Part shown: positions 1 through 42,312 of the stretch, in pieces
Position numbering within the stretch: position 1 is the stretch's first letter
Layout of the letters: each line of letters starts with the position of its first letter
From: Promethearchaeia archaeon
GTDB taxonomy: Archaea; Asgardarchaeota; Lokiarchaeia; Sigyniarchaeales; SOKP01
DNA: 64,000 nucleotides
Direction of reading: 5' to 3'
NCBI GenBank assembly: GCA_046483985.1
Contig: JAWOCD010000092.1
Location: 1 to 64,000, forward strand
The notes under the pieces: generated by a model
Told to the model about the DNA's origin: nothing
What the model saw: only the letters and a program-made list of their open reading frames with translations
Databases searched by the model: none
Translations under genes and position numbers: made by a program

Positions 1-291
1 AAAAAATGATCGATAATTTGCATCCAGTTTCCGTAATGTCATTTGTAGAACCTTAGAATACACCCATTTGTATTCCGGATATTTATCCTTAATTTTTGGT
101 AATCTGTTTTGTTGCTGTGTGTATGTTATGTATTTTCTTTCCTGCTTTGGTTTTTTCTTTTGTTTTTTCCAAGTGTTGATACGATCCGAAAGTGCAAAAT
201 TATATATCAAACGGCATTTTTCCGATAAATCCCAAAGTACTTGTAATTGTTCTTCCGTAGGATATATCCGAATTTTTTGACTTAATTGCAC
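1..291 (-). CDS. tnpB: RNA-guided endonuclease TnpB, N-terminal part (runs off window)
   Basis: Manual translation from GTG at 291: MQLSQKIRIYPTEEQLQVLWDLSEKCRLIYNFAL...YPEYKWVYSKVLQMTLRKLDANYRSFF, the typical TnpB N-terminus. Not in the ORF track because it is open at the edge. Confidence 0.9.
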   Translation of the reverse strand, partial: MQLSQKIRIYPTEEQLQVLWDLSEKCRLIYNFALSDRINTWKKQKKKPKQERKYITYTQQQNRLPKIKDKYPEYKWVYSKVLQMTLRKLDANYRSFF

Positions 292-298
292 TTTCTAT

Positions 299-505
299 TC
301 ACCTTATAATGTGTATGTGATCAAGATCGGTTTCTTGATTAAGAATTTTAATCTCATTTTTTTCCGCTAACGATATATTAATTTCTTTTAATCTATTGAT
401 TATTTCATCGGTATCGAATATCTTTCTTCGAGATTTTACACAACAGATGTAATGGTAGTTTAATGAATACACCGAATGAGCACCTTTATCAAGTTCGTAT
501 CCCAT
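299..505 (-). pseudogene. tnpA: Truncated Y1 (HUH) transposase TnpA
   Basis: HSVYSLNYHYICCVKSRRKIF...DLDHIHI then stop. Ends right after the HUH motif and lacks the C-terminal helix with the catalytic Tyr. Confidence 0.85.
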
Positions 506-658
506 TCTATTCACTTGGTTACTAAGATAATATCAAAAACCAAATATAAAAATGTTTGTATAATATACGAAATTCATCCCCTCCCTAAAGGGATGGGGAC
601 TTCTTTCGCAGATCGTTAAAAATTTGATGATGTTAGTGCCTAAAATGAAGAAACAGTA

Positions 659-715
659 TTGAAGTCTCCCCGCCCTAAAGGACGGGGATTCCTACGAGTC
701 CACTAAGCGTTAGCC
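659..715 (-). mobile_element. Solo IS200/IS605 right-end remnant
   Basis: Minus strand reads GAAT-CCCCGTCC-TTTA-GGGCGGGG-AGACT-TCAA (guide motif GAAT, hairpin, TCAA end). Homologous to 42257-42312. Confidence 0.75.
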
Positions 716-1342
716 TCAAAACCAATCCATCGGGTCTAAAAAGGCAAATACATCGCCCAACCAGTAATAAAACTCAAACCAATATTGATATGTGAAACCT
801 AAATATAAAATGGCAAATGCAAGTCCAAAGATAAAGCCAAAGATAACATCGCTCGGGAAATGCACCCCCAACGTAAGGCGTGTACCGGCAATAAGGATAT
901 CGAAGATAATAACTGCTATCAGCAGAATCCAACTATTAAACGCAAACGCAAAAAGAATACCGAAGAACAAGAAGAACGTCACATGCCCAGAAGGAAAGCC
1001 TCTAGTTTTATCAATCATTTCATCATGGCTTTTCACCCCATATTGTTCAAGAATTTCAAACGGACGCTGTCGTTTAATGACACCATATCGGATGATGATA
1101 TAAATCGCAAAGGATTGATCAAATCCCCCAGTCATCAGGATAAATAAATAATAATCCTTGGTAATATATCCATAAATACCTAATGCGAACCAGAGTAGTC
1201 CCCAAAAATAGATATTCCCAAAGAAACTTATGATCTTCGCAAATTTCTTGTTTTTTCGGGAAAAATCACTTTCATAGAGGACTAAAAAAATTTTATGATC
1301 CCATTTTTTAATTCTTTGGACCGTAGACAATATAGATCCCAT
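716..1342 (-). CDS. PAP2-family membrane phosphatase
   Basis: KRQRP, FPSGH and RLTLGVHFPSDV motifs; multiple TM segments. Confidence 0.9.
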   Translation of the reverse strand: MGSILSTVQRIKKWDHKIFLVLYESDFSRKNKKFAKIISFFGNIYFWGLLWFALGIYGYITKDYYLFILMTGGFDQSFAIYIIIRYGVIKRQRPFEILEQYGVKSHDEMIDKTRGFPSGHVTFFLFFGILFAFAFNSWILLIAVIIFDILIAGTRLTLGVHFPSDVIFGFIFGLAFAILYLGFTYQYWFEFYYWLGDVFAFLDPMDWF

Positions 1343-1431
1343 AAAATAAAAAACTTTAATCTTTTTTATAACTTTTTATTAAAAGAGTGTTTAAGTAAAA
1401 ATAAAGTTATAACTGCCAAGAATCAATAAAC

Positions 1432-3024
1432 ATGATCACTGTAGATGAATGGCTCGGGACAAAAAAAGGAACGGATCGATTAAGAAAGCACCTTTTCCGA
1501 GTCTACGGGAAAGATTATAAGAATGTTAAGGATAAGCTTATCTTTATTCAATCATTGCTAAGATTACACAGGAAAACTTATGGAAATCTGCCCACGCTAA
1601 TAATTCGGGTTCCAGGGCGAAGTAATCTAATGGGTCGACATATTGATCATCAATATGGTATGCTTAATCTAGTGGCAATAGACAAGGAAATAATATTCGT
1701 CGCCTCCCCTCAAAATCTCCCAGAAATCCACGTTCAGAATGAGAATGCCCAAAAGTTTCCGTCAATGCAATTCTCAACACAGATCGGGCAAAAGTTTTTA
1801 CAACTTCCTTGGAAACATATAATAGAGAATCAAGATTTACTCAATACATTCAGAGAAACTCCAGGTTCTTGGGTAAATTATTTAAAAGGAGCATATTATA
1901 AGACGGGGCATCATTTTAAGAAGAAGAGCTTGAAGGGTGCAAATATCACAGTTGGGGGGACTATTCCCCTTGCAGCGGGATTAAGCAGTTCCTCGGCGAT
2001 TACATTAGGAATGATAAAAGTCCTCCTAGAACTGAATAAATTTAACATTTCGCAAAAGAATCTAATCTCTTTAGCGAGAGATGCTGAATGGTTTGTAGGA
2101 ACACGTGGCGGAAACGGAGATCATGCTGCACTACTTTATGCCGAAAAAGATAAAATCATTCAATACTCTCCGAGAGAAAAACAGATCCTCAATAGGGGTC
2201 ACTTCCCCAATGATTACGTGTTAATTGTATGCGTAAGCCATATTCCCGCAGAAAAATCAGGAAAAAAGCGTGATATCTTTAATTCACGCGTGCTTGCATA
2301 TCAGGTGGGGCTTCTTTTATTTAAGGAGCAATTTCCACGCCTTGAAGAGAAAATCAAACAAATCGATGACTTACGACCTGCAAATCTGGACATAGCCGAT
2401 GGAGAATTATTAGAAATGTTGTTAAGCATTCCCCATTCAGTCGAATATTCCAAATTACCACAAATTTTAGAAAAGTACTGGGAAAGGTTAATGAAACGCT
2501 TTCATTTTGCGGACCCCCCTCAGCATTTGAAAATACGCGATGTGCTTATCTACGGTATTGCAGAATGCAAGAGAAGTATCCGTTTTTTGAAATTGATCTT
2601 GAAACACAAATTGAAATCCGCTGGAGAATTAATGAATATCTCTCATAACGGAGATAGGGTTATAAAGTTTAATAAGCATATGGAGCCTTGCAACTATAAA
2701 ATATCTTATTCGCAGGCATATGTAAGGAAATTACTTACAACTGCAAAAATGGAAAAAGAACAGTTGCAATTCGAATATCTTCCCGGCAGATATCGGTGCA
2801 GTATCAAGGAGATTGATTATCTGGTGGATATCTGCACACAGAGCGAGGGTGTACTAGGGGCACAAATATCGGGCGGGGGATTGGGAGGAAGCTGTATGGC
2901 GCTGGTTCATAAGGATTATAGCACCACAGTGAGGAAAAGCATAGAAAGGCAATATAGGGAGCATTTCCATCAGAATTGTAGGACCTATGAATGTATTCCC
3001 GTGGATGGAGTCTCTCTTTTTTAA
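1432..3024 (+). CDS. Galactokinase-like GHMP sugar kinase
   Basis: PGRSNLMGRHIDH, PLAAGLSSSS and GAQISGGGLGGSC motifs. Confidence 0.85.
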   Translation: MITVDEWLGTKKGTDRLRKHLFRVYGKDYKNVKDKLIFIQSLLRLHRKTYGNLPTLIIRVPGRSNLMGRHIDHQYGMLNLVAIDKEIIFVASPQNLPEIHVQNENAQKFPSMQFSTQIGQKFLQLPWKHIIENQDLLNTFRETPGSWVNYLKGAYYKTGHHFKKKSLKGANITVGGTIPLAAGLSSSSAITLGMIKVLLELNKFNISQKNLISLARDAEWFVGTRGGNGDHAALLYAEKDKIIQYSPREKQILNRGHFPNDYVLIVCVSHIPAEKSGKKRDIFNSRVLAYQVGLLLFKEQFPRLEEKIKQIDDLRPANLDIADGELLEMLLSIPHSVEYSKLPQILEKYWERLMKRFHFADPPQHLKIRDVLIYGIAECKRSIRFLKLILKHKLKSAGELMNISHNGDRVIKFNKHMEPCNYKISYSQAYVRKLLTTAKMEKEQLQFEYLPGRYRCSIKEIDYLVDICTQSEGVLGAQISGGGLGGSCMALVHKDYSTTVRKSIERQYREHFHQNCRTYECIPVDGVSLF

Positions 3025-3071
3025 GAGTTCTTGCAATTTACCGGGTTTGCACTTTCATATTCAAAATTTAT

Positions 3072-3223
3072 CAAAAAAGCAAAAGAAAACTCCATCCTTT
3101 AGGGAGGAGATGAATTTTGCGTTTAAATCACTAAATAGGTTAAGACCATATTTTTAAATAGGTCAATATCTAACTTATAATTATACAATGCTTCGGACTA
3201 ATACCTTAGAATTGAATCCTACA
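3072..3223 (+). mobile_element. IS1341-type left-end remnant with first 12 codons of tnpB
   Basis: Preceded by TTTAT; left-end hairpin region TCCATCC-TTTA-GGGAGGAG; ATG at 3188 gives MLRTNTLELNPT. Near-identical to 4608-4743. Confidence 0.75.
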
Positions 3224-3251
3224 TATTTTTATATTTGATGGATAGGAAATT

Positions 3252-3890
3252 ATGGGAAAAAAAGAGCAGACGAACAATTCTGAGATTGATCTGTCATTAT
3301 ATGATTTTAAATGTCAGAAATGCGGAAATTGTTGCAGAGCAGGACTAGACGTCTATATTCAAAGAGAAGATATTGAAAAATGGGAAAAAAGAGAAAGAAC
3401 GGATTTGCTTAAATATCTACAAATCGATGCGGAATCGATATCTGAAGAAGGATTGGGTGGATATCATATTGAAGATAATAACGCCGTATTAGAACTGAAG
3501 GACAAGTATTCCGGTAAGAAGTTAGAAAAAACACTGAAAAAACTCATCTCTTTTATTGAAAATAATCATCATTATGCCGGCATTGGCAATTTACCCCTTC
3601 CTATTTATAGTATAGTGCCAGGTAAAGAAAAAAGACCCATTTTTATTCCCAAAAGTTTTCAAGTGATTAAAAAGGGAATAAAACGTGGGATAGAATATAA
3701 AATTTTCAAACCTCTCTCTGGTGAATGTCCATTTCTAAAAGATAATCTCTGCTCCATTCAGCAGATTAAGCCCATAGTATGCGAGTTATTCCCCTATGAT
3801 GAGGAGGGAAATCTTGATGTGGGTGAATTTCGCCTATCGCTCTGTAAAGGATTAAGAAAAAAGCAGAAACTTGACAAGAATAAGAATTAA
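3252..3890 (+). CDS. YkgJ-family (CxxCxxCC) Zn/Fe-chelating protein
   Basis: CQKCGNCC, CPFL...CSIQQIKPIVCELFP. Confidence 0.85.
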   Translation: MGKKEQTNNSEIDLSLYDFKCQKCGNCCRAGLDVYIQREDIEKWEKRERTDLLKYLQIDAESISEEGLGGYHIEDNNAVLELKDKYSGKKLEKTLKKLISFIENNHHYAGIGNLPLPIYSIVPGKEKRPIFIPKSFQVIKKGIKRGIEYKIFKPLSGECPFLKDNLCSIQQIKPIVCELFPYDEEGNLDVGEFRLSLCKGLRKKQKLDKNKN

Positions 3891-4012
3891 TGCAATTTTG
3901 TTCAAAGTTTTGAATATGAGGATTTGTTGGATCTACATAGACTTTTAAATGAAAGTTGTTTATATGATAATAACAAATGGTAAATTATTTTAAAAATGAG
4001 GTGAAAAATAAT

Positions 4013-4079
4013 ATGAGTAATGAAAATCAACAAATATCGGAAAATGAAATGAGTAATGAAAATCAACAAATATCGGAAA
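4013..4079 (+). repeat. 36-bp-period in-frame tandem duplication (MSNENQQISE x2)
   Basis: ATGAGTAATGAAAATCAACAAATATCGGAAA at 4013 and again at 4049. Confidence 0.9.
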
Positions 4080-4573
4080 CAGAATTACGAAAAGTGGCAA
4101 AAAGAAGGGTTCAATTCAGAAAGTCCGTGAGCGTTCATTTTGCTCTGTTTTTAATTGTAAATTTGCTCTTGGTCGTAATAAACTATCTTTCAATTGAAGG
4201 GGATATCAATCTTCAAAACTTTTGGGTTTTATATCCAATATTTGGATGGCTTATCGGCGTAATGATACATTTAACGGCATATTTTCTGTATATTAATGAA
4301 GTAAAGCCGCTTGCAAAACGTATTCTTATCTTTCATATCGTTGCATATATATTTACTAATATACTCTTGATTATTGTCAACTTGATTACTAATCCGGCAA
4401 TATTCTGGGTGCTTTTCCCACTAATCTTCTGGGGTGCGGGGCTTGTAGTCCACATAGTGATTTATTTTCTATATCTCCAAGAAGGAGCAGAAAAAGGAGT
4501 AGAAGGAAAATCCAGAAAGGAAAAGGCTATTGAAAGGGAAATGCAACGTATTAAATCGAAAGGTAAAGAATAA
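4013..4573 (+). CDS. 2TM-domain membrane protein (two 2TM repeats)
   Basis: Repeated H..(LF/AY)..N.LL..IN...W...P..GW/WG....H pattern, C-terminal IEREM. Start uncertain (3977/4013/4049). Confidence 0.8.
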   Translation: MSNENQQISENEMSNENQQISETELRKVAKRRVQFRKSVSVHFALFLIVNLLLVVINYLSIEGDINLQNFWVLYPIFGWLIGVMIHLTAYFLYINEVKPLAKRILIFHIVAYIFTNILLIIVNLITNPAIFWVLFPLIFWGAGLVVHIVIYFLYLQEGAEKGVEGKSRKEKAIEREMQRIKSKGKE

Positions 4574-4607
4574 AGACCGAAAAACTAATCTTTTTTATTT
4601 TTTTTAT

Positions 4608-4875
4608 AAAAAGCAAAAGAAAACACCATCCTTTAGGAAGGAGATGAATTTTGCGTTTGAATCACTAAATATTATAAGACCATATTTTTAAATAGGTCAA
4701 TATCTAACTTATAATTATACAATGCTTCGGACTAATACCTTAGGATTAATATATTCGTAATTATAAAAAGAAGCAAAACCTTAATTTAAGGTTATAAAAC
4801 CAACCTATATTGTCTAATGTACTGATCATGCATTAGAGATTATGAATCTCACGGTTTTAGACGTGAGAAGTTTAA
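4608..4875 (+). mobile_element. Miniature non-autonomous IS200/IS605 derivative (left end, tnpB start, right end/omegaRNA region)
   Basis: TTTAT target, left-end hairpin, ATG CTT CGG ACT AAT ACC, then right end GAAT-CTCACG-GTTTTAGA-CGTGAG-AAGT-TTAA. Confidence 0.8.
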
Positions 4876-4934
4876 TAATATCTATATTGGAACGTATCTT
4901 TAAAAATATAATACACAACAAGGTAAAAAGAAAA

Positions 4935-5507
4935 ATGAATGAAATAAACACACATTTTAGTGAGGAAGCTTTAAGAGAGATCGCAGCCAAAAAAGTCACA
5001 TATCGGCGGTCGGTCCAAATTCACTGGGCTTTATTTGTTTTAGTAAATATTTTGCTTTTCACAGTTAATTTTTTCAGCATAAGTGAGATAAGTATTGTAA
5101 CTGCTCAAATTGGGAAATTTAAGTTCCCAATAATGCAGCTATGGGCATTTTTTCCACTCTTTGGATGGTTCATTGGGATTGCCATGCATTCTGTGGCATA
5201 TATTTGTTATGCAACTGGAGTTTATCCCATGGCGAAGCGGGGAGTCTTATTCCATGCTACCGCATATCTTTCCGTTACCCTTCTATTAGTAATGATTAAT
5301 CTTATATTCCCCCCCCATGAGCTTTGGTGGGTCTTTTATCCGGGGTTTTTCTGGCTAATTGCCGTTATTATTCACTTCGTTATCTATATGATCTATTATC
5401 GGGGGGATATCTCCGAGACGGGAAAATATAGAAGCAGGAAAGAAAGAGCTATAGAAAAGGAGATGAAAAAAATACGCAGAAAAATGAAAAAGAGTAAAAC
5501 GGAATAA
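4935..5507 (+). CDS. 2TM-domain membrane protein (paralogue of 4013-4573)
   Basis: Same repeat pattern and SRKERAIEKEM tail. Start moved from 4842 (inside the IS end) to ATG 4935. Confidence 0.8.
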   Translation: MNEINTHFSEEALREIAAKKVTYRRSVQIHWALFVLVNILLFTVNFFSISEISIVTAQIGKFKFPIMQLWAFFPLFGWFIGIAMHSVAYICYATGVYPMAKRGVLFHATAYLSVTLLLVMINLIFPPHELWWVFYPGFFWLIAVIIHFVIYMIYYRGDISETGKYRSRKERAIEKEMKKIRRKMKKSKTE

Positions 5508-5520
5508 GGAGGAAAATTAC

Positions 5521-6168
5521 ATGTGGCTGACAAAATTCTTGGATATGGAAGATGATATAAAGGAGCTTGCTAAAAAAGCTGCATCTGATGTTAAGGTAGA
5601 AATATTTGAAAAGATGAAATCAAAGCTAACGCCCTTGGAATTTACCATCCTGGAAAGCATTTATAATAGTGAAAAAGTATCTGGTTATGATTTAATTAAA
5701 AATCTGAATGAGCATTTCGCTGGAACCTGGAAAGCTAAATCGGGCACAGTCTACCCTATTTTATCCAAACTGAAAAAAGGAGGATTTTTAAAGACCGAAA
5801 AAGTAAAAAGTCCCGTCGGTCCCATAAAAAGCCTCTATAGTCTCACAAAAACGGGAAAGGAACTTGTACAGAAAAAGGTGAACCAGAATTTTACAGATCA
5901 ACTGGGATTTTTAAAGAATTTTTTAATCGAATTGACCACAATCTATATTGAGTCAGAGGAGGACTCAGAAGAACAAAGGCGTGAGAAGATCCATGAAATA
6001 TTCAAGACCCTTGACAATTTGATAGAGGAGATTAAAAAAAAAATTCCAGAAAATTTCGAATTCAAAAGGAGATGTACCGAATGCGGAGCGGAAATCACAA
6101 GATTTGACAGTCAATTTTGTCCCGTTTGCGGAGCGGAAATTGAGACTGAGACCAACCACAACGAATAG
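5521..6168 (+). CDS. PadR-family transcriptional regulator with C-terminal zinc ribbon
   Basis: SGYDLIKNL...GTVYPILSKL...YSLTKTG; CTECG...FCPVCG. Confidence 0.9.
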   Translation: MWLTKFLDMEDDIKELAKKAASDVKVEIFEKMKSKLTPLEFTILESIYNSEKVSGYDLIKNLNEHFAGTWKAKSGTVYPILSKLKKGGFLKTEKVKSPVGPIKSLYSLTKTGKELVQKKVNQNFTDQLGFLKNFLIELTTIYIESEEDSEEQRREKIHEIFKTLDNLIEEIKKKIPENFEFKRRCTECGAEITRFDSQFCPVCGAEIETETNHNE

Positions 6169-6259
6169 AGTCTCTTATATAAAATATAAATTAAATTCGC
6201 AAAAGCTTTTCTTTTTTCAATCTATATCTTAACAACAGAGCGATTCTTTTTTTTAGATT

Positions 6260-7756
6260 TTAATGTGCGAAATGAAGGGTGGGACGGTCTGGCTTTTCAT
6301 TAAAAATATTACTAAAACAGTTACAACATGGGATGCCGATATCTAATTCAATTCCTTTATGCGTTTTTAAGTACATACTTTTGAGGAGGTTTTCTCTTAG
6401 GTCCTTTTTGCGTTCGTCATAATAAAAGGAGAGCAGATAATTTTTATGATTTGTAGTTCCACAGACCGGACAAGTGCTGTAATGAATCAGAAATCGTTGC
6501 ACCTCTTCCAGATCAGAAAATTTACCTTCTATATTTTTACAGAATACAAAACAATCCTCGCAAGGAATGCCAAAAAACTTATCTGGTTCTTGGTTTAAAT
6601 CTTCCAGACATGATGCTTCTTGCATCCGTTCTATTAAAATCGATTTAAACTTTCGATATCTTCGTCGGAAATAAAATTTCGCTACAATTGGAGTATCATC
6701 GTAGGGGTCCCCACAGATTGGGCAATGGTCATAAAACCGCTTAAAGTCATGGAATTTCCGTATATCTTCAGTTTCCAGTTTTTTGATACAAATTTGCAAG
6801 CACGCACTTTTCACCCGTTCAAATGTCTGATGAGTTAAGAAGTAGTGGGTTCTATCTGCAGAATCCTTATACTCATGCAGTTCATCTTCAATCTCGTTTT
6901 CCCTAAAGAATTTCAAAATTTGCCGTTTTGCCTTGTAATAGAACTGCCGGTGGAGCTTTTGATAAGATTCGGTGTTATATTGAAAAAATTCTTCAAAATG
7001 TTTTTTGTTATGGATACAATAATTCACTAACTCCGATAAATTATATTCATATTGATAATCCATCTTAATCTTACGCAATTCATTAAAAATCTTCACTTTT
7101 TCCATATTTGGGGTATATGAACCGTTCAAGAAGCTTTTAAGTTTTTTCATGCGTCTATTATAGAATACATCTAAGAACCCCATATTACCCGGAAGGGGTT
7201 CCACCCATAATTCATCACAAATCAAAATAAAATTTACTCTGGGTACTTCAGGACCAACGTAATTAAATAATTGATACGAAAATTCGTTTTGCTGCTCATT
7301 ATATCCGTTCAGATAGTATCTTTTCCCTTGTTCTATGAGCGAGGTATCCAATTTCATGACTTGAATTAACGCCATTACAATTTCATAGCAGAAACTTTCA
7401 AAAACATACCTTTTTATTGCCCCATACAATAAGCTACGCCAGCGTGCGAACCCTGACTCAAACATTTTTGAAAGGAAAAAAAGCAATGTTTGATTGTGAA
7501 AATTGTATTCAAACATATCAGTACAGTAATACCCGAATTGACGGTAATGGCGATGGTTGCCACCAATATAAAACTTAATTCCGCTTATAACTTGATTGAG
7601 CCGCTTAATTGCCGGATCCTCAAACTTCTCTAAAATTGTTTTTATCATCTCTGGATTTATAAGATTATTTGTATCCACATAAAATTTACATCTGTTAAAT
7701 TGAAATTTGGTATTTTGCGTTGTAGATTCAGGATGATTACTTTTTGTCGGACTCAT
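6260..7756 (-). CDS. Hypothetical protein with two C-terminal CPxC...GIPCxxC Zn-binding modules
   Basis: 498-aa ORF; HCPICG/GIPCEDC and TCPVCG/GIPCCNC. Confidence 0.7.
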   Translation of the reverse strand: MSPTKSNHPESTTQNTKFQFNRCKFYVDTNNLINPEMIKTILEKFEDPAIKRLNQVISGIKFYIGGNHRHYRQFGYYCTDMFEYNFHNQTLLFFLSKMFESGFARWRSLLYGAIKRYVFESFCYEIVMALIQVMKLDTSLIEQGKRYYLNGYNEQQNEFSYQLFNYVGPEVPRVNFILICDELWVEPLPGNMGFLDVFYNRRMKKLKSFLNGSYTPNMEKVKIFNELRKIKMDYQYEYNLSELVNYCIHNKKHFEEFFQYNTESYQKLHRQFYYKAKRQILKFFRENEIEDELHEYKDSADRTHYFLTHQTFERVKSACLQICIKKLETEDIRKFHDFKRFYDHCPICGDPYDDTPIVAKFYFRRRYRKFKSILIERMQEASCLEDLNQEPDKFFGIPCEDCFVFCKNIEGKFSDLEEVQRFLIHYSTCPVCGTTNHKNYLLSFYYDERKKDLRENLLKSMYLKTHKGIELDIGIPCCNCFSNIFNEKPDRPTLHFAH

Positions 7757-15016: not shown

Positions 15017-15345
15017 TTGAACCACTCACGCCTTAAAGCATAAGATTCGTACTTCCTAATGCGTAATACACACACTAGGCAATACGAGATGGTTCTCCAC
15101 CCCGAAATAATCGTCTCCAAGGGACGGTGAACTTGATTATAATTTTTAAGGATTTTTATGGTTCCCATTATATTTCAATCATTTCGATATCTGCATTCCC
15201 TACATTTGAATATTTTATCGTTCAGTTTTACTTTAGATTGACACTTTGGATAAGTCGATGAAGTATGGGACCTTTCCAATGCGGTTAATGCGGTTCTCGA
15301 GCTAAAATTAGGGCAAAATCCATCCTCGCCCTAAAGGACGGATTG
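15017..15345 (-). mobile_element. Internally deleted IS200/IS605 element with degraded tnpB 3' end
   Basis: Left-end hairpin region TCCGTCC-TTTA-GGGCGAGGATGGATTTTGC; remnant HTSSTYPKCQSKVKLNDKIFKCRECRYRND*NIMGTIKILKNY (Zn ribbon plus RuvC-III); right end GAAT-CTTATGC-TTTAAG-GCGTGAG-TGGT-TCAA. Confidence 0.8.
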
Positions 15346-26791: not shown

Positions 26792-27490
26792 TTATGTTTC
26801 TTTACCGAACTCTCCCCAGAAATCTTTAAAAACCAGAACTTTCCGTTTTTCTAACCTTGTAAGGGCTTCTGGATATTTTTTAATTTCATTGCCACGCAAT
26901 CCTAGTGCTTTTAATGATTTTAAATTTCCTATCGATTGAGGAAGAGTCGAAAGATAATTATCCGTTAGATCTAGTCTTTCGAGTGATTTTAGGTTCCCAA
27001 TTGATTTTGGAATAGTTCTAAGTTCATTAGATCTTAGATTTAGACATTTGAGTGATTTCAATTTCAATATAGGTTTTGGAAAGGCCTTAATTTTATTGCC
27101 CATAAGCATAAAAGATTTAAGTGACCTTAAGTTGGTAAACGATTCGGGAAGTGTCCTAATGCTATTATTCATTAAATCCAGTAATTCAAGTGCTGTTAGT
27201 TTGCCAATAGAACTCGGGAGTGTGGTTAGATCATTTTCCTCCAAATGGAGTTTTTCCAGGGCTTGGAGGGTGCTGATCGACTCTGGAAGAATTTTCAAGT
27301 TGCACTTAAAAAGTCCTAGAGCAGAAACCCTCTGATTCGTTACTACGAATCCCATTTTTGTATTATGCTTTATTTTCTCTACTTTGGATAGTTCTTTACC
27401 TGTTAGCATTTCCAGTTCTTTGAGCACATTTACTTCTTGCTGAGCAAGTTCTGCTCCCCGAAATGATACAATATCGATTTGTTCATTCAC
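26792..27490 (-). CDS. Leucine-rich repeat protein
   Basis: LPxSIGxLxxLxxLxLxxN repeats. Native start probably GTG 27490; the upstream 55 codons come mostly from an IS remnant. Confidence 0.85.
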   Translation of the reverse strand: MNEQIDIVSFRGAELAQQEVNVLKELEMLTGKELSKVEKIKHNTKMGFVVTNQRVSALGLFKCNLKILPESISTLQALEKLHLEENDLTTLPSSIGKLTALELLDLMNNSIRTLPESFTNLRSLKSFMLMGNKIKAFPKPILKLKSLKCLNLRSNELRTIPKSIGNLKSLERLDLTDNYLSTLPQSIGNLKSLKALGLRGNEIKKYPEALTRLEKRKVLVFKDFWGEFGKET

Positions 27491-27513
27491 TTTTATTTTC
27501 ACTCTATATATGT

Positions 27514-27738
27514 TTGAACTACCACGCCCTAAAGGGCGATGGATTCGTAATTCATCGAGAATCGCCGACACAGATAACATCGGTCTTACATCCCCTCCAA
27601 ACGCCAGCTCCACAGTCCCTGGGGTTATATGATGAACTTGGTTATCGTCCATCAATTACATTATAGTAGCGCTCCTTTATAAATATATATGCGAATCAAC
27701 ACCACCCTAAAGGAGGGATGCTTTCTCGCACTCTAGTG
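27514..27738 (-). mobile_element. Miniature IS200/IS605 derivative with apparently complete omegaRNA-like right end
   Basis: TTAC target, AAAG plus left-end hairpin (ATCCCTCC-TTTA-GGGTGGTG), TnpB C-tail TPGTVELAFGGDVRP, right end GAAT-CCATCGCCC-TTTA-GGGCGTGG-TAGT-TCAA. Confidence 0.85.
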
Positions 27739-27760
27739 GTAAATTTAATTAGGGGGTTAT

Positions 27761-30392: not shown

Positions 30393-30560
30393 TTGAACTA
30401 CTCATATTCTCTAATGCGTGATCAGTACATTAGACAATATAGGTTGGTTCTCCAACCGTAAATTAAGGTTCTACTCCGTTCTATAATTATGAAGTATATC
30501 AAGACATTAGTCCGAAGTATTGTCTTATTTTAAAGGATGGAATTTGCTTTTGTTTTTTTG
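30393..30560 (-). mobile_element. Degraded copy of the 4608-4875 miniature IS200/IS605 element
   Basis: TTTAT-CAAAAAAACAAAAG left end; shares AACCAACCTATATTGTCTAATGTACTGATCA(C/T)GCATTAGAGA; both terminal hairpins partly deleted; ends TCAA. Confidence 0.8.
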
Positions 30561-30579
30561 ATAAATAGTACTTTTAGTC

Positions 30580-34184: not shown

Positions 34185-36371
34185 TTACCAAGATAAGCCT
34201 TTGATAAATTTTAAATCAGAGATAATTCGTTTCGCCTCTTGTGATGGAACTTCCCGAAAGGTATAAAATTCGTTTTGCCAGAATGCTTTTCCAGAGGTAA
34301 AAGAGCGTAGATCCTCCGCAAAATTGATGGAATTTCGCACTGGCAAGAAGATTTCAATAGTAGTTTGATATTCATTTTCTTGATCAATTTTATTAATTTT
34401 TGCTTGATGTTTGGAAAATACAGAAGTCGCCTTTTTTACATACTCCGATGGTAATTGAATGACTGTACGATAAATTGGCTCCAAAAGAATAAGTTCGGCA
34501 TCCTTTAAGGCTCGTTTAATTGCATCATAGAAGAGAGTCGAAAGCTCGGTAAATAAGGTCTCTTCATCGATTGAATATAATGTTAAATCCAGTATGGTAA
34601 TTTTTATGCTCGTTAGTCGCTCACCGCATAAAGGTCCATTCAAATGGATTTTTTCAATAATTTCCAAGATTTCCTTTCTATGTTCTTTGCTTACTTCTGA
34701 GTCCGAAAGGTTAATGAGAATATTTTGATCCGAGTCAATATTCCAAAGATGGGCAATTTCAACCTCCGATAAAGAAGTATTCCCCTTCAAATATGATTTA
34801 CGCCGTTTTTTTGCCTTGGTCTTCTGTAAATCCTCATCTCGTAATGTTTTGATAACCTTATCGTTTAGGCGTTCCACTTTTAGTTTTAATACATTCTGCT
34901 CTTCCGAGGAATATGAGGAAATCACAGAAGAACTATGTCTGCAGGATTCCTTAAACACAGCGCGAGGTTCAGACATCGAAATTTCAACGCCCCGCTTTTC
35001 AATTTCATGAGCCGTGACTTCAAGATGGAGCGGACCCATTCCAGAAAGAAGATATTGTCCAGTATCTTCATTAATTTCAAATTTGAGATTGGGATCTTCA
35101 ATTAATAAATTTTCGATGATTTCCTTCATCTCGTCAATTTGGCGTAGGTATTCTGGTTCGATTGACACAGTAACTACGGGGGTGGATACATATTTTACAT
35201 TTTCGAAAGGAAGCATGCTATCGTCCATTCCCGTCTCAACGAGTGTTTCTCCGCTTTTCACTTTTTTTAACGCTTCAAGTGCTACAATATTCCCCACGGG
35301 AATTCTATCGACATGCTCTCTTCGTTGTCCCATAAAAATGGCAAGCTTTCGAATTCGCTCAATTTTATTTTCCCGCATTAGCAAAATCTCTTTTTTTTTG
35401 GTGCAAGTTCCAGAGAAAATCCTGCCAGTGGCAACTAAACCATGATTATCAACTTGAACTTTACTCAAACAAATAATTAGAGGACCATTAGGGTCACATT
35501 TTCTCATAGCTTTTCCTATGTTAGAATTAATTGGTCCATCCCAAATTTTTTTGATTCGGTATTCTTGCGCCACATTGGGATTTGGAAGATGTTGAACTAC
35601 CATTCCCAAAACAGCATCGGTGATAGATAAATATATTGGCAAATCGCCGTAAGGGTCTGCAGTGTTTTCGTCTTCATATCGTCTACGAATATCTTCGAAT
35701 TTTAAATCGCTTTTTTGCATTGTTTTATAAGTAAAACCCCATCTATGAAGGGCAGAACCAAATGCCACGTTTCCTTCGGTAATTGCTACTTTCCAATCTT
35801 TATCGTAGGGGGGTTCAGCAAATCTTTCGATTAGGGTATTGAAATCCTTAATAATCCTGGAAAATTTTTCTTTTATTTCTTCATCATTTAATTTGAGTTC
35901 TCGTATTAGACGATCCACTTTATTTATATAGAGAATAGGTTTCACACCCTCTTGGAGAGCTTGCTTTATCACCGTTTCCGATTGCGAGATAATCTCTTCC
36001 ACTGCATCCACTACAACTATAACCCCGTCAATTAGGCGAAGAGCTCGTGTGACCTTACCACTAAAGTCTAAATGCCCTGGCGTATCAACAAGATTTATTA
36101 AAAAAGGTTTCGTTTCTTTTAAACTCTTTTCATAGTAAAGCGATATATTTGCGGATTTCATTGTTATGCCACGTTTTTGCTCTTCCTCTAAAAAGTCTAG
36201 TGCTCTGGCCTCTCCAGCAAGATCGGGGGAAAGAAGACCCGCTTCGCTTAGTAATGAATCTGAGAGTGTTGTCTTCCCATGGTCTATATGACCTACAAAA
36301 CCAATATTGCGGATTTGTTCCCGGTTCTCCATTATCTTTAATATTTCGGAGATTTCTTTATGACGTGGCAT
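34185..36371 (-). CDS. fusA: Elongation factor 2 paralogue (aEF-2p-like; no diphthamide motif)
   Basis: GHIDHGKT, RGIT, DTPGH, NKVD, GMGPLHLE, GPLCGE, LLEP. Domain IV loop reads LYSIDEETLFTE instead of the LHED..HRG consensus. Confidence 0.88.
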   Translation of the reverse strand: MPRHKEISEILKIMENREQIRNIGFVGHIDHGKTTLSDSLLSEAGLLSPDLAGEARALDFLEEEQKRGITMKSANISLYYEKSLKETKPFLINLVDTPGHLDFSGKVTRALRLIDGVIVVVDAVEEIISQSETVIKQALQEGVKPILYINKVDRLIRELKLNDEEIKEKFSRIIKDFNTLIERFAEPPYDKDWKVAITEGNVAFGSALHRWGFTYKTMQKSDLKFEDIRRRYEDENTADPYGDLPIYLSITDAVLGMVVQHLPNPNVAQEYRIKKIWDGPINSNIGKAMRKCDPNGPLIICLSKVQVDNHGLVATGRIFSGTCTKKKEILLMRENKIERIRKLAIFMGQRREHVDRIPVGNIVALEALKKVKSGETLVETGMDDSMLPFENVKYVSTPVVTVSIEPEYLRQIDEMKEIIENLLIEDPNLKFEINEDTGQYLLSGMGPLHLEVTAHEIEKRGVEISMSEPRAVFKESCRHSSSVISSYSSEEQNVLKLKVERLNDKVIKTLRDEDLQKTKAKKRRKSYLKGNTSLSEVEIAHLWNIDSDQNILINLSDSEVSKEHRKEILEIIEKIHLNGPLCGERLTSIKITILDLTLYSIDEETLFTELSTLFYDAIKRALKDAELILLEPIYRTVIQLPSEYVKKATSVFSKHQAKINKIDQENEYQTTIEIFLPVRNSINFAEDLRSFTSGKAFWQNEFYTFREVPSQEAKRIISDLKFIKGLSW

Positions 36372-36459
36372 TTTCTTGAATTTGCTACCATTACTTATCT
36401 TTAAGTATACTTTCTTCATTCTTATGCCTTAAAATTTACTACGGGCAAATTTTAAGGGT

Positions 36460-36570
36460 GGGAAATGACCCCCTCATTACTCAAGATCCTCCTCATTGGA
36501 TCAACTCACACTCGGTAAGCTTTCTCCTCAGTTGGGTCAGACTTTTCATCGGGAAAAATAATCATTTCCC
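36460..36570 (-). ncRNA. Candidate structured non-coding RNA
   Basis: GC-richer island with terminal GGGAAAUGA/UCAUUUCCC, UGACCC/GGGUCA, AGCUUAC/GUGAGUU (G-U pairs favour minus strand) and GAUCC/GGAUC helices. Confidence 0.45.
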
Positions 36571-36761
36571 AATAAATATTAAAGTAAAATTACAAATTAA
36601 TTTTAACAATTTTAAATTTTAACTTATCTCAATCCTAATAATGACTTTTAAGTTTGAAAGACAATAATGTCAAAAAAGAGTTTCATATAAAGTCTTATCG
36701 AATGAAGTTAAAATGACTCTCTTCTGGAAATAGGGTCAAAGTTAATAATAATAATTTTTTT

Positions 36762-37403
36762 TTATAAATCAATCTTACCTTTAACTTTAACAATCCTGCC
36801 GTCTATTTCTAAACGATCATCGCAGAATAATTCAATCGATTTCGGAAAAATTTTGTGCTCCCATTTTAATATTCGAGAACCCAATGAATCTTCTGTATCA
36901 TCAGCATAGACTCTTACGCATTTTTGAATAATAATAGGCCCGTGATCTTTATGTTCATCCACAAAATGTACAGTTGCACCAGAAACTTTTACGCCATATT
37001 CCAGAGCGTCTCGATGTGCATGCATTCCCTTAAAACTCGGTAAAAGTGCCGGATGAATGTTCATAACTTTTCCTTGAAAATGTCTAATAAACTCTTTGCT
37101 CACTAACCTCATATAACCAACCAGTACGATTAATTCACAGTCATAACTGTCTAGGACCTCGATTATCTTCTGGTCAAACTCTTCTCGAGTGCCCTTATGT
37201 TTATCGGATTCAATTAACTCATAAGGGATATTATGTTTTTTGGCACGTTCCATGCAATAAGCTCCCGGTTTATTACAAATTAATACCTCCACTGTAGCCT
37301 TTTCTTTTAGAATACCAGATTCAGTCGCCTCTACAATTGCTTCAAAATTAGAGCCACTCCCACTTGCAATTGCCCCAATTTTCAGTAACTTTTTCTCCGT
37401 CAT
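36762..37403 (-). CDS. purN: Phosphoribosylglycinamide formyltransferase
   Basis: ASGSGSNF, GYMR, NIHPALLPSF, SGATVHFVD..DHGPII. Confidence 0.95.
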   Translation of the reverse strand: MTEKKLLKIGAIASGSGSNFEAIVEATESGILKEKATVEVLICNKPGAYCMERAKKHNIPYELIESDKHKGTREEFDQKIIEVLDSYDCELIVLVGYMRLVSKEFIRHFQGKVMNIHPALLPSFKGMHAHRDALEYGVKVSGATVHFVDEHKDHGPIIIQKCVRVYADDTEDSLGSRILKWEHKIFPKSIELFCDDRLEIDGRIVKVKGKIDL

Positions 37404-37897
37404 AATAATGACTACCAACCATAAGTAAAAAAATTTACGTGTTTTCACTAAAACTCTTATTTAAGTACTAAATAAAAGCCCATAAGCCCTTCTCGGCCTC
37501 CAACGGTAAATCCTAAGAAGGAATAAAATTGTTCACGAATAAATTATTAATAGAAAAACAATAAGTTTATTGATAATCAAATAAACCAAAGAAAAACGTA
37601 TACATATAATCAATAAATTTTTAAACGATAAAAGAATTAATCTACATAGAAATTTAGAAATATTTTATTTCTACTAGTTCTCTTATATTCAATTATAAGA
37701 GAAAAGAGTTCTATTTGTATAAAATTGATTCATGAATAATGAAAAAATATTTCATTGAATACAAAATTTCATAATTAAATTGACATTACAGAGAATTTTA
37801 CAAGAATAAACGAAATTAACTAATCCATTCTCAATTTCTGAATGGATTAAAATCTAAAAAATTATAGATGAAATTAAAGAATTGAGCATAAGAACAT

Positions 37898-39808
37898 ATG
37901 AGTTTTAAAAAAGAATTAAATAGCATAAAACAAGAAATCCTTGATTATTTTCCGCCAGAGATTAAAGTAAACAAAATAGAATTTGAAGGACCAGAAATTG
38001 CAGTATATTCAGAGAATTCCAACTTAGATTTTGTCGAAGATTCTAATTTGTTGAAGAGTTTAGCGAAAAAGATGAGAAAAAGAGTCGTGATCAGGTGGAA
38101 TGTAGAAAAAAGAAAGGATCCAGCAGAAACAAGAGAATATATCAAAAACTTAATCGGAGAAGAGGCAGGCATTTCGGATATTGAATTTGATCATAATCGT
38201 GGGGAAGTAATTATCGAATCCGAGAAGCCTGGCTTAGTCATTGGTAAAAAAGGGGTAAATCTGAAAGAAATTAGAGCCAACACCTATTGGCAACCTAAGA
38301 CCATAAGAACTCCCCCGTTAAGTTCCAGAACCATTCAATTAATCCGAGGTATGTTGAGCAAGGAAAGAAAAACACAAAAAGAGATCTTATTACGGATAGG
38401 AAAGAGAATCCATAGACCTGTCGTATATAACGATCTATCAATCCGAATGACGGCATTAGGAGGATTCAGGGAAGTGGGGCGTTCTTGTATCTTGCTTCAA
38501 ACTAAAGATAGTAATATCATGTTGGATTGTGGTTTAAATGTGGGGAATCCTTACGAGAAATTCCCTTTTTTTTCTGTTCCAGAATTTTCTGTCAGAAATT
38601 TAGACGCTGTGGTTGTAACTCACGCCCATTTGGATCACTGCGGTCTTGTTCCATTTCTTTATAAATACGGATACCGGGGTCCGGTGTACACTACCCTGCC
38701 CACACGAAACCTATCAACCATGCTACAGCTCGATTATATTCAAATCTGCGAAAAAGAAGGAACGCCTGGACCTTATTCAAAGGGAGATGTAAAAAAAACA
38801 GTTCTTCACACTATCCCTCTCTCCTGGGGAAAAGTTACAGATATTGCACCCGATGTCAAATTAACACTCCATAATTCAGGTCATATCTTGGGGTCCTCCA
38901 TTGTCCATCTTCATTTTGGAAAAGGGGGATATAATTTTGTCTATAGCGGAGATTTCAAATATCAAAAAACCCGATTATTGGAAAAAGCAAATGTCAAATT
39001 CCCACGGGTAGAGAGTTTGCTTATTGAATCTACTTACGGGGGACCACAAGATAGGATTCCAAGCCGTCATGATTCTGAAAAAGAATTAAGACAAATTATC
39101 AACCATACCGTTAAAAATGGAGGAAAAGTTTTAATTCCAGTGCTTGCAGTAGGGAGAGCTCAAGAAATAATAATCGTTTTGGAGGAATTCCTCTCTCGAG
39201 GGTTAATCGAGGAGGTCCCCATCTTTTTAGATGGTTTAATTTCAGAGGCAACGGCGATACATACCGCGAATCCCGATTTCCTTAGTTCGGACTTAAGAGA
39301 AAAAATCCTCCATCAAGGAAAAAATCCATTTCTGTCGGAGTTTTTCACAACCGTCGGTTCACATGAAGAACGGATGGATATTTTACAAGGTGGACCCGCT
39401 GTAATATTAGCAACCAGTGGAATGTTAATTGGAGGACCATCCGTGCAGTATTTGAAGGGTTTAGCACAAGACAAAAAAAGTTCGCTAATTTTTGTATCCT
39501 ATCAAGTTTCTGGAACTCTTGGAAATAGAATTCAGAGAGGATTCAGAGAATTTCAATACGTTGACAATAAAGGGAGAACTCAATTGGTTAAGTTAAACCT
39601 TAAGACATTTACATTAGAAGGTTTTAGCGGTCATTCGTCTCGAAGTCAAATTTCACAGTTTTTACGTAGAATTCAACCGCGTCCGAAACTTGTTATTACA
39701 AACCACGGAGAAGAATCAAAATGTGTGAGTTTATCCACAATGGTGCACAAAAAACTACATAAAGCCACAAGAACTCCGCGTAATACTGAGACGGTTTTAC
39801 TTAAATAG
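37898..39808 (+). CDS. fttA: Beta-CASP ribonuclease aCPSF1 / transcription termination factor FttA
   Basis: N-terminal KH domains (PGLVIGKKG), GGFREVGRSC, HAHLDH, GHILGS, ESTYG, GFSGHS, HGE. Confidence 0.95.
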   Translation: MSFKKELNSIKQEILDYFPPEIKVNKIEFEGPEIAVYSENSNLDFVEDSNLLKSLAKKMRKRVVIRWNVEKRKDPAETREYIKNLIGEEAGISDIEFDHNRGEVIIESEKPGLVIGKKGVNLKEIRANTYWQPKTIRTPPLSSRTIQLIRGMLSKERKTQKEILLRIGKRIHRPVVYNDLSIRMTALGGFREVGRSCILLQTKDSNIMLDCGLNVGNPYEKFPFFSVPEFSVRNLDAVVVTHAHLDHCGLVPFLYKYGYRGPVYTTLPTRNLSTMLQLDYIQICEKEGTPGPYSKGDVKKTVLHTIPLSWGKVTDIAPDVKLTLHNSGHILGSSIVHLHFGKGGYNFVYSGDFKYQKTRLLEKANVKFPRVESLLIESTYGGPQDRIPSRHDSEKELRQIINHTVKNGGKVLIPVLAVGRAQEIIIVLEEFLSRGLIEEVPIFLDGLISEATAIHTANPDFLSSDLREKILHQGKNPFLSEFFTTVGSHEERMDILQGGPAVILATSGMLIGGPSVQYLKGLAQDKKSSLIFVSYQVSGTLGNRIQRGFREFQYVDNKGRTQLVKLNLKTFTLEGFSGHSSRSQISQFLRRIQPRPKLVITNHGEESKCVSLSTMVHKKLHKATRTPRNTETVLLK

Positions 39809-39939
39809 ATATTCCCTTCCTTTTCCTTTAATAGAGCTAATATCCCACTTAGGAAAAATTAATTTTTTTAACTAACAATTATTTAATAATGTAAATAATT
39901 TCTTCAAACTCATAAAAAACTAAATGAAAGTGGGAGTTC

Positions 39940-40881
39940 TTGTCCGATAAAAAAATTAATTTAAAAGAAAAAAAGGTTACAATTGCCCGACGCATAGTAC
40001 AAACTATCGCATTTCTCTTAATTAATTATGTGATCATTGAGTTAATCTTTTCTATAAATCTGAAAGGATTTGAAGGATTTATAAAGATTTTACCGATTTT
40101 AAATTCACCGCGTAATCCATTATCGGACGGAGCTGGAATGCTGGAATACATTTATTATTTCTTTATCGAGGGAGTATTTCCCTTTTTCATTAGTGGAGCG
40201 TTAATTCTCATCCTTCTATTTACCAATCGTTTTTTCTGTGGATGGGTTTGTCCGATTGGATTTATCCAAGATCTTCTATGCAAGATTCCCAAGGAAACTA
40301 AACGGGTTAGCATAGAAAACCATAATTCCTTAGTTAAATTAAAATATTTAATAGTAATTCTTATCACAATTATTATTGTCCCTCTGGGCGTTACCAAACT
40401 TACGGATTTAGTCTTCTATTTTCAATATAAGCAAAATCTCGGTCAAATGGCACAAAAACCATTGGGATATTTTTCATTGTCGGAATTTATTTTTGTCTTT
40501 TTACCCGACCTCTTTGGGCAAATTTGGGAAGCTGCAGAGCTTAGTCCGCTTTTTTCTGATTGGTTCATTTTTCTTTATTTCGCATTTTATATAATCGTAT
40601 TAATAATTACTGTTTATTATCCGCGCGCCTATTGTCGATATATTTGTCCTTTCGGAGGTGTCGCTTCTGCAGTGAGTGATTATTCATTTGTAACACTCTC
40701 CAGAAGTCCCGTAAAATGTGTTGGTAGGAAAAAATGCGGTGTGTGCGAGCGAGTCTGTCCTAAACAAATACGAATTCTAGATGAACCCTTCGAGTTCTTT
40801 ACAGGATCTGGTGAATGTAATATGTGTTTAGAATGCTTAGAGAGTTGTCCGTACGATGCAATTAAAATTAAGATGAAATAA
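39940..40881 (+). CDS. Membrane 4Fe-4S binding protein (NapH/NosR-like)
   Basis: RFFCGWVCPIG, RAYCRYICPFG, two ferredoxin-type Cys clusters. Confidence 0.88.
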   Translation: MSDKKINLKEKKVTIARRIVQTIAFLLINYVIIELIFSINLKGFEGFIKILPILNSPRNPLSDGAGMLEYIYYFFIEGVFPFFISGALILILLFTNRFFCGWVCPIGFIQDLLCKIPKETKRVSIENHNSLVKLKYLIVILITIIIVPLGVTKLTDLVFYFQYKQNLGQMAQKPLGYFSLSEFIFVFLPDLFGQIWEAAELSPLFSDWFIFLYFAFYIIVLIITVYYPRAYCRYICPFGGVASAVSDYSFVTLSRSPVKCVGRKKCGVCERVCPKQIRILDEPFEFFTGSGECNMCLECLESCPYDAIKIKMK

Positions 40882-41046
40882 GAACTTTACCCTTTGAATT
40901 TCGAACGTTATTATGTTAATTTTAAGCCTATTGGGCACCTATATCAGCAAAAAAATAAATAAAAGATTAACCTTAAATTGGGATTTTTTAATATATACAA
41001 ATAAGAGATTATAATTGTCAATAAATAAAGAAAAAGATAATTCGTC

Positions 41047-42252
41047 ATGGATGAAAGGCGGCTCAAAAAAATTAGCAATAGATTAAATCGAGATTCAGAA
41101 CTCGGTAAACTCGCAATCAAGAATTCTGACGCGGTAAGATATTATGAAGAAGAGAATAAGAAAAAATATCGAGATACGCGACCTCCTTTTTTTCGTGATG
41201 TAGATAGGATTGTTCATTCAAAGGCTTATTCACGCTACATTGACAAGACTCAAGTTTTTTATGAGATAAACAATGCGAATATCACACATCGATCATTGCA
41301 TGTAATTCTGGTTTCACGAATCAGCCGGCATATTGGTCGTATACTAAAGCTCAATACAGACCTTATAGAGGCAATTTCACTCGGACATGATGTGGGGCAT
41401 TCTCCCTACGGGCACTTAGGTGAAGACATTTTAAGTGATATTAGTGCAGAAGAAGATATTGGAAGATTTCATCATAATGCACAAGGAATACGTTGGTTAT
41501 TATATTTAGAGAAGAGATTCCCCAAAGAACCAGCTCAAGGACTCAATCTCACTTTACAGGTGTTAGACGGAATCCTATGCCATGATGGTGAGATTAATGA
41601 ACGTGTTCTAAAGCCAGAGGAAATAAATGGAAAGAAATGGGATGACTTTTTTGACGAATATAATAACTGTTTTAGGGAAGACGAAATGGATGTCATCCCG
41701 ATGTCTTATGAAGGAATTGTTGTTCGGTTTGCCGACACCATCAGTTATATTGGAAGAGATATTGAAGATGCCATTCTCTTAAAACTGATTGATCGAGAGG
41801 AAATTCCAGAGTTTTGTCAAGACGCATTAGGTGATACCAACAGAAAAATCATTGACACATTAGTCATGGATCTGATTGATTATAGTATGGATCATAGAGA
41901 AGTAGGATATAGCCAAGAGATATTTGAAGCTCTGAAAAAGCTTAAGGAATTTAATTATGAGCGAATTTACAAGCGACGAGATCTTTACATCAGAGAGGGT
42001 TGCGATAAACCGTTCCATGAAGAATTAAAGGAAAAATTTCAAGTTATTTATAATCAATCATTGAAAGACCTTCGGGAGGAAAATTTTCAAGCACCCGTCT
42101 TTGTTGATCATATTGAATATATTGATGATAAAAGCTATTCTACCTATTATTATCCTCTAAAAAGGACGGGAAAACTTGCACTTCTTGTTCGAGATTATAT
42201 TGCAGGGATGTCTGATAACTATTTTATGGAGATTTACAATCGATATAAATAG
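41047..42252 (+). CDS. dGTP triphosphohydrolase-like HD-domain protein
   Basis: RDVDRIVHSKAYSRYIDKTQVF, HRSLH, GHDVGHSPYGHLGE, ADTISY, DYIAGMSD. Confidence 0.9.
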   Translation: MDERRLKKISNRLNRDSELGKLAIKNSDAVRYYEEENKKKYRDTRPPFFRDVDRIVHSKAYSRYIDKTQVFYEINNANITHRSLHVILVSRISRHIGRILKLNTDLIEAISLGHDVGHSPYGHLGEDILSDISAEEDIGRFHHNAQGIRWLLYLEKRFPKEPAQGLNLTLQVLDGILCHDGEINERVLKPEEINGKKWDDFFDEYNNCFREDEMDVIPMSYEGIVVRFADTISYIGRDIEDAILLKLIDREEIPEFCQDALGDTNRKIIDTLVMDLIDYSMDHREVGYSQEIFEALKKLKEFNYERIYKRRDLYIREGCDKPFHEELKEKFQVIYNQSLKDLREENFQAPVFVDHIEYIDDKSYSTYYYPLKRTGKLALLVRDYIAGMSDNYFMEIYNRYK

Positions 42253-42256
42253 AGAT

Positions 42257-42312
42257 CTGAAGCCCCCCTCCCTAAAGGAAAAAGAATCCTACGAGATCAC
42301 TAAGTATTCCGC
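42257..42312 (-). mobile_element. Degraded IS200/IS605 right-end remnant
   Basis: Aligns with 659-715 (CCCTAAAGGA...TCCTACGAG..CACTAAG) with a damaged hairpin. Confidence 0.65.

Follow-up and report, generated by a model that had tools for sequence, protein, structure and literature searches.

Results

IS200/IS605-derived pieces at the locus

We analysed a window comprising the first 64 kb (positions 1–64,000) of contig C59 from a Promethearchaeota (Asgard) genome, a metagenome-assembled genome (MAG) of 4.06 Mb in 128 contigs with 35% G+C. Dispersed between the genes of its first 42 kb are eight related pieces of DNA, in three families, that descend from transposons of the IS200/IS605 type (Table 1). 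The evidence below indicates that they are very probably ordinary selfish-DNA remnants, that is, non-autonomous and decaying IS200/IS605 (IS608-like) derivatives. A first-pass annotation, made from the letters of the sequence, had proposed instead that they form a repertoire of trans-acting guide RNAs (omegaRNAs) for TnpB.

As a description of the DNA, that annotation was largely borne out. All eight pieces are genuine repeats: each has 29–88 BLAST matches in the genome (E ≤ 1e-3), the family 2 pieces match one another inside the window, and 27514–27738 is 92% identical over 222 nt to a copy on contig C18 (E 3e-88). Their boundaries had been placed correctly to within a few bases, the 5-nt target motif set apart, and all eight lie between open reading frames (ORFs). 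Six carry a right end, as had been said, with the GAAT–hairpin–…TTCAA layout present; the Y1_Tnp and TnpB domains agree with the end anatomy on an IS200/IS605 origin; and the flank named as a guide after 27514 was read correctly.

Under one uniform criterion, 8 element ends fall in the 42-kb stretch, whereas the genome averages 2.8 over that length, which places the stretch within the top 2.5% of such windows (maximum 9). Its density of ends is high, yet not unique. Recognisable ends number 143 left and 149 right across the genome (~290 in 4 Mb), so that the genome-wide count for which the annotation had called returned no excess of right ends. These elements break the assembly, the MAG being fragmented precisely at such repeats.

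Table 1. Transposon-derived pieces in the window and their recognisable parts.
Positions	Strand	Feature	Details
1–620	−	Left part of family 1 element, IS608-like layout	99% identical to the copy on contig C97
620–616	−	Target motif of 1–620	TTTAA
615 to ~541	−	Left end and hairpin of 1–620	
293–475	−	tnpA of 1–620, Y1_Tnp match	194-bp deletion
1–291	−	tnpB of 1–620, N-terminal HTH part	GTG start at 291, then 97–98 codons
659–714	−	Solo right-end tip, family 1	Last 56–58 bp, reference positions 1856–1913
3067–3213	+	Left half of family 2 miniature	TTTAT and left-end hairpin; 94% identical to 4601–4747; lacks a right end
4603–4875	+	Complete family 2 miniature, 273 bp	TTTAT, left end, A/T-rich TATA-like stretch, ~100-nt right half, three hairpins
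15017–15345	−	Internally deleted, degraded tnpB-only element	Tip-less left-end hairpin, tnpB remnant, right end
~15290–15345	−	Left-end hairpin of 15017–15345	Lacks the tip
15151–15282	−	Zn-ribbon remnant of 15017–15345	In-frame TGA
~15110 to 15017	−	Right end of 15017–15345	Related to family 2
27514–27743	−	Complete family 3 miniature, 230 bp	TTTAC, left end, TTTATAAA box, ~135-nt right half, TTCAA at 27514
30393–30566	−	Family 2 derivative with two internal deletions	3' half of left hairpin and whole right terminal hairpin gone
42257–42312	−	Degenerate family-1-like right-end tip	79% identical to 659–715

Three families with shared end anatomy

Family 1 is an element of ~1.87 kb that carries tnpA and tnpB in the same orientation. 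Mapped to a composite reference built from contigs C97 and C116, its left fragments share their first base and its right fragments their last, and inner breakpoints vary at 95–100% identity. Exact tips combined with differing internal breakpoints point to independent deletions. Only the copy on C97 is near-complete, and many others end at contig ends. The window's own left fragment runs off the contig because the window begins at C59 position 1; its tnpB therefore stops at the contig start, and deletion of that gene is not established.

Families 2 (~273 bp, 10 full copies plus fragments) and 3 (~230 bp, 24 full copies plus fragments) each keep a single internal layout across copies that are 70–92% identical, which shows that they were amplified as miniatures. 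They are too short to encode a transposase, possess both near-terminal palindromes and occur as many dispersed copies. [quoted passage not shown]

Flank alignments of all left and right ends have TTTAA, TTTAT or TTTAC directly preceding the left end and TTCAA closing the right end, between unrelated flanks, with an AAAG-type word before the left hairpin and GAAT before the right one. The two ends differ from each other, each with a subterminal hairpin, and neither inverted terminal repeats nor target duplications are present. This anatomy, a Y1 (HUH) TnpA gene and a three-domain TnpB are the characters of the IS200/IS605 family.

Right ends followed within 100 nt, on the same strand, by the left end of another element were found in 11 cases at ~7 independent loci, against 0.26 expected (for example, window 657–620, C126:109756, C69:11925, C45:82027 and C17:88919). 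New insertions apparently favour sites immediately downstream of right ends already in place. Outside the window, C125:1–115 and C127:1–170, both at contig starts, are a tandem array with a 54-bp period, in which every unit fuses a right-end tip, ending in TTCAGG, to a left end of the family 3 type with nothing between them, a pattern resembling a series of circle junctions.

Right halves descend from tnpB 3' ends

In family 2 and in 15017–15345, the right half aligns with sequence lying past the Zn-ribbon of tnpB remnants at other places in the genome, and the right half of family 3 translates as a TnpB-like C-terminal tail. Covariation and decay were assessed in 23 family 3 copies, with helices defined by hand and counted with controls. 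Two internal hairpins, distinct from the terminal TnpA hairpin, carry compensatory changes between subfamilies (CG 10 versus UA 9; UA 9 versus CG 8; AU 15 versus GC 6). In this structure 75% of cells are paired, compared with 35–50% when partners are slid, and the covariation score is 0.232 against a shuffled mean of 0.145, a value reached by 0 of 500 shuffles, although both margins are flattered because the structure was derived from the same sequences. A fifth helix candidate (ATTC/GAAT) was inconsistent between subfamilies and was dropped. A conserved TTTATAAA box stands ~25–30 nt before the scaffold. Descent from tnpB 3' ends together with compensatory changes argues that the ancestors of families 2 and 3 encoded omegaRNA-type scaffolds.

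Across six orthologous elements, the family 1 omegaRNA region has a conserved 9-bp long-range helix that joins TTTTCTACGA to TCGTAGGAA. Window piece 659–714 contains the 3' strand of this helix, the terminal hairpin and TTCAA; lacking the 5' strand, it is not an omegaRNA scaffold. The proposed retention of right-end/omegaRNA sequences therefore holds for 4603–4875, 27514–27743 and 15017–15345, by tnpB 3'-end homology and compensatory changes, and fails for 659–714 with its one helix strand. Searches of Rfam at gathering thresholds and at E ≤ 1 gave only tRNAs and noise at the pieces, and no matching family.

A covariance model of the family 1 omegaRNA region (R1, 146 nt) detects ~25 strong copies genome-wide, and 16 of these exceed 120 bits. 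The same model, which follows a check suggested by the annotation, has no significant match at any window piece: 659–796 scores 9.9 bits (E 2.5), 15017–15139 scores 9.1 bits (E 4), and 4603–4875, 27514–27743 and 30393–30566 return nothing.

Outside the window, tnpB-less right-end fragments of family 1 (130–185 bp) at C126:109757–109935, C2:51305–51459, C23:10488–10627 and C94:135–276 keep the whole 146-nt omegaRNA-type region and score 106–131 bits with R1. Judged by their sequence, these fragments, not the window copies, would be the candidates for use in trans by the surviving TnpB.

Family 3 copies decay neutrally after insertion

Copy-private substitutions in family 3 are as frequent in stems as outside them (0.66 per stem column versus 0.57 per non-stem column), and 31 of the 38 that fall in stems break the pair: these copies decay neutrally after insertion, an outcome that, in the absence of covariation, the annotation had named as counting against its proposal. 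Its expectation that right ends would be better conserved than left ends was also disappointed, pairwise identity in family 3 being 0.79 at the left end and 0.82 at the right tip, with 0.75 in both the middle and the right-half scaffold.

The window copies show no sign of current constraint. Over its last 108 nt, piece 4603–4875 shows 13 differences from the family 2 consensus, and six of these fall in highly conserved columns; the conserved positions that have changed include the GGAG of the GGAGAACC motif and the terminal TTCAA, which reads TTTAA. In 27514–27743, 5 of the 29 tested base pairs are unpaired, of a set in which 2 of the 29 pair in no family 3 copy. The shortened derivative 30393–30566 keeps the middle hairpin and the GTAGTTCAA tip, and the degenerate tip 42257–42312 ends in TTCAG, the arms of its hairpin no longer complementary. 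In the right-end hairpin at 15017–15060 (−), two C-to-T changes from the consensus in the 5' arm would keep G–U pairing in RNA but not in DNA, a single case without statistics.

One open TnpB and no intact TnpA

TnpB is represented in the genome by 26 Zn-ribbon and 5 RuvC matches, and only one gene, C97:3–1229 (−) (locus L031, family 1), is open over its length; it is also the sole tnpB whose RuvC domain is whole. Its product matches PF12323, PF01385 and PF07282 (HTH, RuvC and Zn-ribbon) and aligns with ISDra2 TnpB over residues 8–400 (E 5e-20). The RuvC-I and RuvC-III Asp residues are present, and the RuvC-II Glu is replaced by Gly (VGDLN versus the usual xEDLN); tnpB remnants of the second family likewise read IGDL at RuvC-II. 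This Glu-to-Gly change fits a known rearranged, presumably active class (Altae-Tran et al. 2023, PMC10691335). The closest relatives of the family 1 protein are found in Promethearchaeota MAGs, and intact orthologues of the gene are patchily present among relatives.

No intact cognate tnpB for family 2 or 3 was found among the 26 Zn-ribbon and 5 RuvC matches, although the assembly is fragmented and absence is not proven. The cognate TnpB on which a guide function would depend is thus at hand for family 1 and was not found for families 2 and 3. Two candidates were set aside: the Zn-ribbon match at C33:12006–12371 is a C-terminal stub beside a helicase gene, and a putative tnpB-bearing parent of family 3 in a relative of another genus was not upheld, as the five best right-half matches there adjoin unrelated host genes and lack tnpB.

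All 15 genome matches to the Y1 transposase TnpA (PF01797) are frameshifted, stopped or deleted, including C67:11112–11414 (damaged before the catalytic Tyr region), C66:70294–70656, C97:1242–1610 and window 293–475. Either the Y1 family is now immobile or an intact copy is unassembled.

Guide targets and gene orientation

Targets for the 18-nt flanks of right ends were sought by seed-and-count with up to 3 mismatches, and 18-mers lying 45 nt further out served as controls. The 148 flank guides gave 2950 genome matches compared with 3633 for the controls, and 51 compared with 55 where TTTA stands in front. No second near-exact site flanked by the transposon-adjacent motif (TAM) was found for the window's own guides, and the 20-mers after 27514 and 4875 had no exact match in the viral contig collection. 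The genomic targets that the annotation had envisaged therefore do not exceed the control level, and in the viral contigs none appeared for those two 20-mers. An exact guide match between C94 and C115, considered as an empty donor site, proved to be a 100-bp duplicated segment.

Of 116 right ends, 63 (54%) face a gene start, as do 1059 of 1855 random intergenic points (57%), with gene calls that were crude (ATG-started ORFs of at least 110 aa). This random rate gives no support to the suggested use of the guides in gene regulation.

Neighbouring genes and other features of the window

Genes adjoining the pieces include those for a PAP2 phosphatase, a two-transmembrane (2TM) protein, a metallo-beta-lactamase-fold protein and a leucine-rich repeat (LRR) protein. 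The tip 659–714 abuts the stop codon of the PAP2 gene (716–1342), and the left end of the 1–620 element begins 38 nt downstream of that tip. The tip 42257–42312 immediately follows the stop codon that ends the gene 41047–42252. The family 3 miniature 27514–27743, its right half derived from a tnpB 3' end, lies 35 nt upstream of the LRR-protein gene on the same strand.

Additionally, a tRNA gene with a ~30-nt intron lies at 42824–42925 (+); it scores 43.3 bits with the Rfam tRNA model in the E-value search, is absent from the gathering-mode Rfam list and was not called by ARAGORN. Diverged tandem and dispersed direct repeats with units of 45–246 nt, 60–93% identical, occupy 60078–62106. This block is probably a repeat-protein gene and is unrelated to the IS200/IS605 pieces.

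Discussion

We have traced eight intergenic repeats in a Promethearchaeota genome to three families of IS200/IS605 origin, and provide evidence that at least family 3 is in neutral decay. For this window, a working repertoire of trans-acting guides was opposed by every test that we ran, whether on the ends, their decay, targets, orientation, the protein or the RNA model. We consider it very probable that the pieces are remnants of selfish DNA of a familiar kind.

Families 2 and 3 each arose once, when the core of a tnpB element was deleted; variable breakpoints show deletion to be the route of loss. The founding deletions kept the left end, the TATA-like box and the last 100–135 nt (the tnpB 3' end and right end), and the founders then spread to the ~10 and ~24 full copies, plus fragments, that we observe. 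The known biology of the family and the anatomy of the ends suggest that the miniatures were moved in trans by a Y1 TnpA recognising the subterminal hairpins, and inserted 3' of TTTAH by single-strand peel-and-paste. The omegaRNA-type structure of the right half would be an inheritance from the parent elements, and TnpB homing may have aided the persistence of master copies, as Meers et al. 2023 proposed for PATEs. The window copies now appear to drift, their cognate tnpB genes being dead and no assembled tnpA having stayed whole, and decay itself was measured in family 3.

Several points weigh against this picture of decaying remnants. Many family 1 copies lie at contig ends, and an intact tnpA or tnpB, or a cognate for families 2 and 3, could therefore hide in unassembled repeats. 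Sequence alone also leaves room for cross-use of family 2 and 3 RNAs by the family 1 TnpB. In the family 3 consensus, the better conserved parts include the TTTATAAA box and the scaffold hairpins, and thus master copies may have been selected for making RNA. Finally, the decay test draws on 23 copies of one family and on a structure defined by hand.

A first rival reading is that the miniatures are maintained in trans. Piece 4603–4875, piece 27514–27743 and perhaps 15017–15345 would be transcribed from their own TATA-like boxes into omegaRNAs, and a TnpB from another locus, be it the family 1 enzyme or a cognate missing from the assembly, would be loaded with them; this complex would cut the empty site after excision, and recombination would restore the miniature. 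Meers et al. 2023 (PMC10055086) stated this idea for PATEs. The descent of the right halves from tnpB 3' ends, their compensatory changes and the conserved box ~25–30 nt ahead of the scaffold are all consistent with it, as is one near-intact TnpB, more of which may lie at contig ends. However, families 2 and 3 have no intact cognate tnpB, these right ends go undetected by the family 1 omegaRNA model, and private mutations break the stems at a rate that fits neutrality. In the window, the family 2 copy has additionally lost the conserved GGAG motif and the TTCAA tip, and with no assembled tnpA intact there would be little excision to counteract. We therefore regard maintenance in trans as unlikely. 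There is a still smaller chance that families 2 and 3 are orphan promoter-plus-omegaRNA cassettes, still transcribed and used in trans by the RuvC-II-rearranged family 1 TnpB or by an unassembled cognate, such that a single nuclease guards dozens of gene-less elements.

Incidental effects in cis, with the miniatures acting as portable promoters or 5' leaders for the downstream gene and TnpB playing no part, also seem quite improbable. TATA-like boxes do occur inside families 2 and 3, and 27514–27743 is co-oriented with the LRR gene, into which an open frame (26792–27655, −) runs without a stop from 27655 through the right end. That continuity is seen in a single copy and is probably due to chance, as no LRR domain starts before the ATG at 27478, and there is no genome-wide orientation bias towards gene starts.

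An exapted regulatory network, in which dispersed right ends supply guides that steer a TnpB-like protein to host promoters or leaders in TldR-type repression, is scarcely credible: the right ends at 4875, 15017 and 27514 do point at the next gene start, 35–60 nt away, and the family 1 TnpB has Gly for the RuvC-II Glu, but right ends in general face gene starts at a random rate, a guide made from the flank can match only its own locus, no second TAM-flanked targets were found, and tnpB belongs to a multi-copy mobile element and not to a fixed single-copy gene. A TldR-like reading of the Glu-to-Gly change was rejected because the change belongs to the rearranged, presumably active class (PMC10691335). 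Unlike in TldR, the catalytic Asp residues are kept, tnpB is multi-copy and patchy among relatives, and no bias towards gene starts is seen.

Taking the pieces as decaying remnants, then, PATE-like descendants of TnpB transposons, of the same sort as in haloarchaea and Geobacillus, are present in an Asgard-type genome, and the significance is mostly one of annotation. If orphan cassettes were expressed and loaded after all, they would represent a natural case in which many guide templates share one TnpB, an arrangement that has been predicted and, in archaea, not yet demonstrated. For biochemical work on the RuvC-II-rearranged class, the family 1 TnpB, whose omegaRNA region is well conserved, would be a sensible candidate.

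Among the closest parallels are the PATEs known from haloarchaea, Haloquadratum walsbyi included (Dyall-Smith et al. 2011, PMC3119063). Those elements likewise lack genes, inverted terminal repeats and target duplications, have palindromes near their ends, and derive from IS605-type elements by core deletion. They too comprise homogeneous and heterogeneous families and terminal-only stubs, in genomes where most tnpA and tnpB copies are pseudogenes, and mobile elements there also land beside other mobile elements. The present elements differ in their Asgard-type host and their sequence families, and their insertions are known from one genome.

The PATE-like elements described in Geobacillus stearothermophilus by Meers et al. 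2023 (PMC10055086) are similarly minimal, gene-less pairs of left and right ends near tnpB elements with similar ends, and it was noted there that PATE omegaRNAs would need TnpB supplied in trans. Geobacillus, however, has intact TnpA and TnpB and expressed omegaRNAs, whereas here the tnpB of families 2 and 3 is dead, assembled tnpA copies are all broken and the elements are known as sequences.

IS608 of Helicobacter pylori shares with family 1 the co-oriented tnpA and tnpB, and with the elements described here a short T-rich target motif whose last bases are TTAC-like and which lies 5' of the insertion, a word of AAAG type before the left hairpin, GAAT before the right hairpin and TCAA at the right end. 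It differs in that the target motif here has 5 nt (TTTAA, TTTAT or TTTAC) and TnpB here is of the rearranged RuvC-II class. As in the ISDra2 TnpB–omegaRNA complex (PDB 8EXA, 8H1J), the guide-RNA region overlaps the tnpB 3' end and finishes at the right-end boundary, whereas the family 1 RuvC-II has Gly (VGDLN), as in RIIr-5-type clades (Altae-Tran et al. 2023), and the scaffold sequence is unrelated. Thus, this kind of element has already been described (Haloquadratum 2011, Geobacillus 2023) and the idea of trans use and maintenance is already in print, while the sequence families themselves are new.

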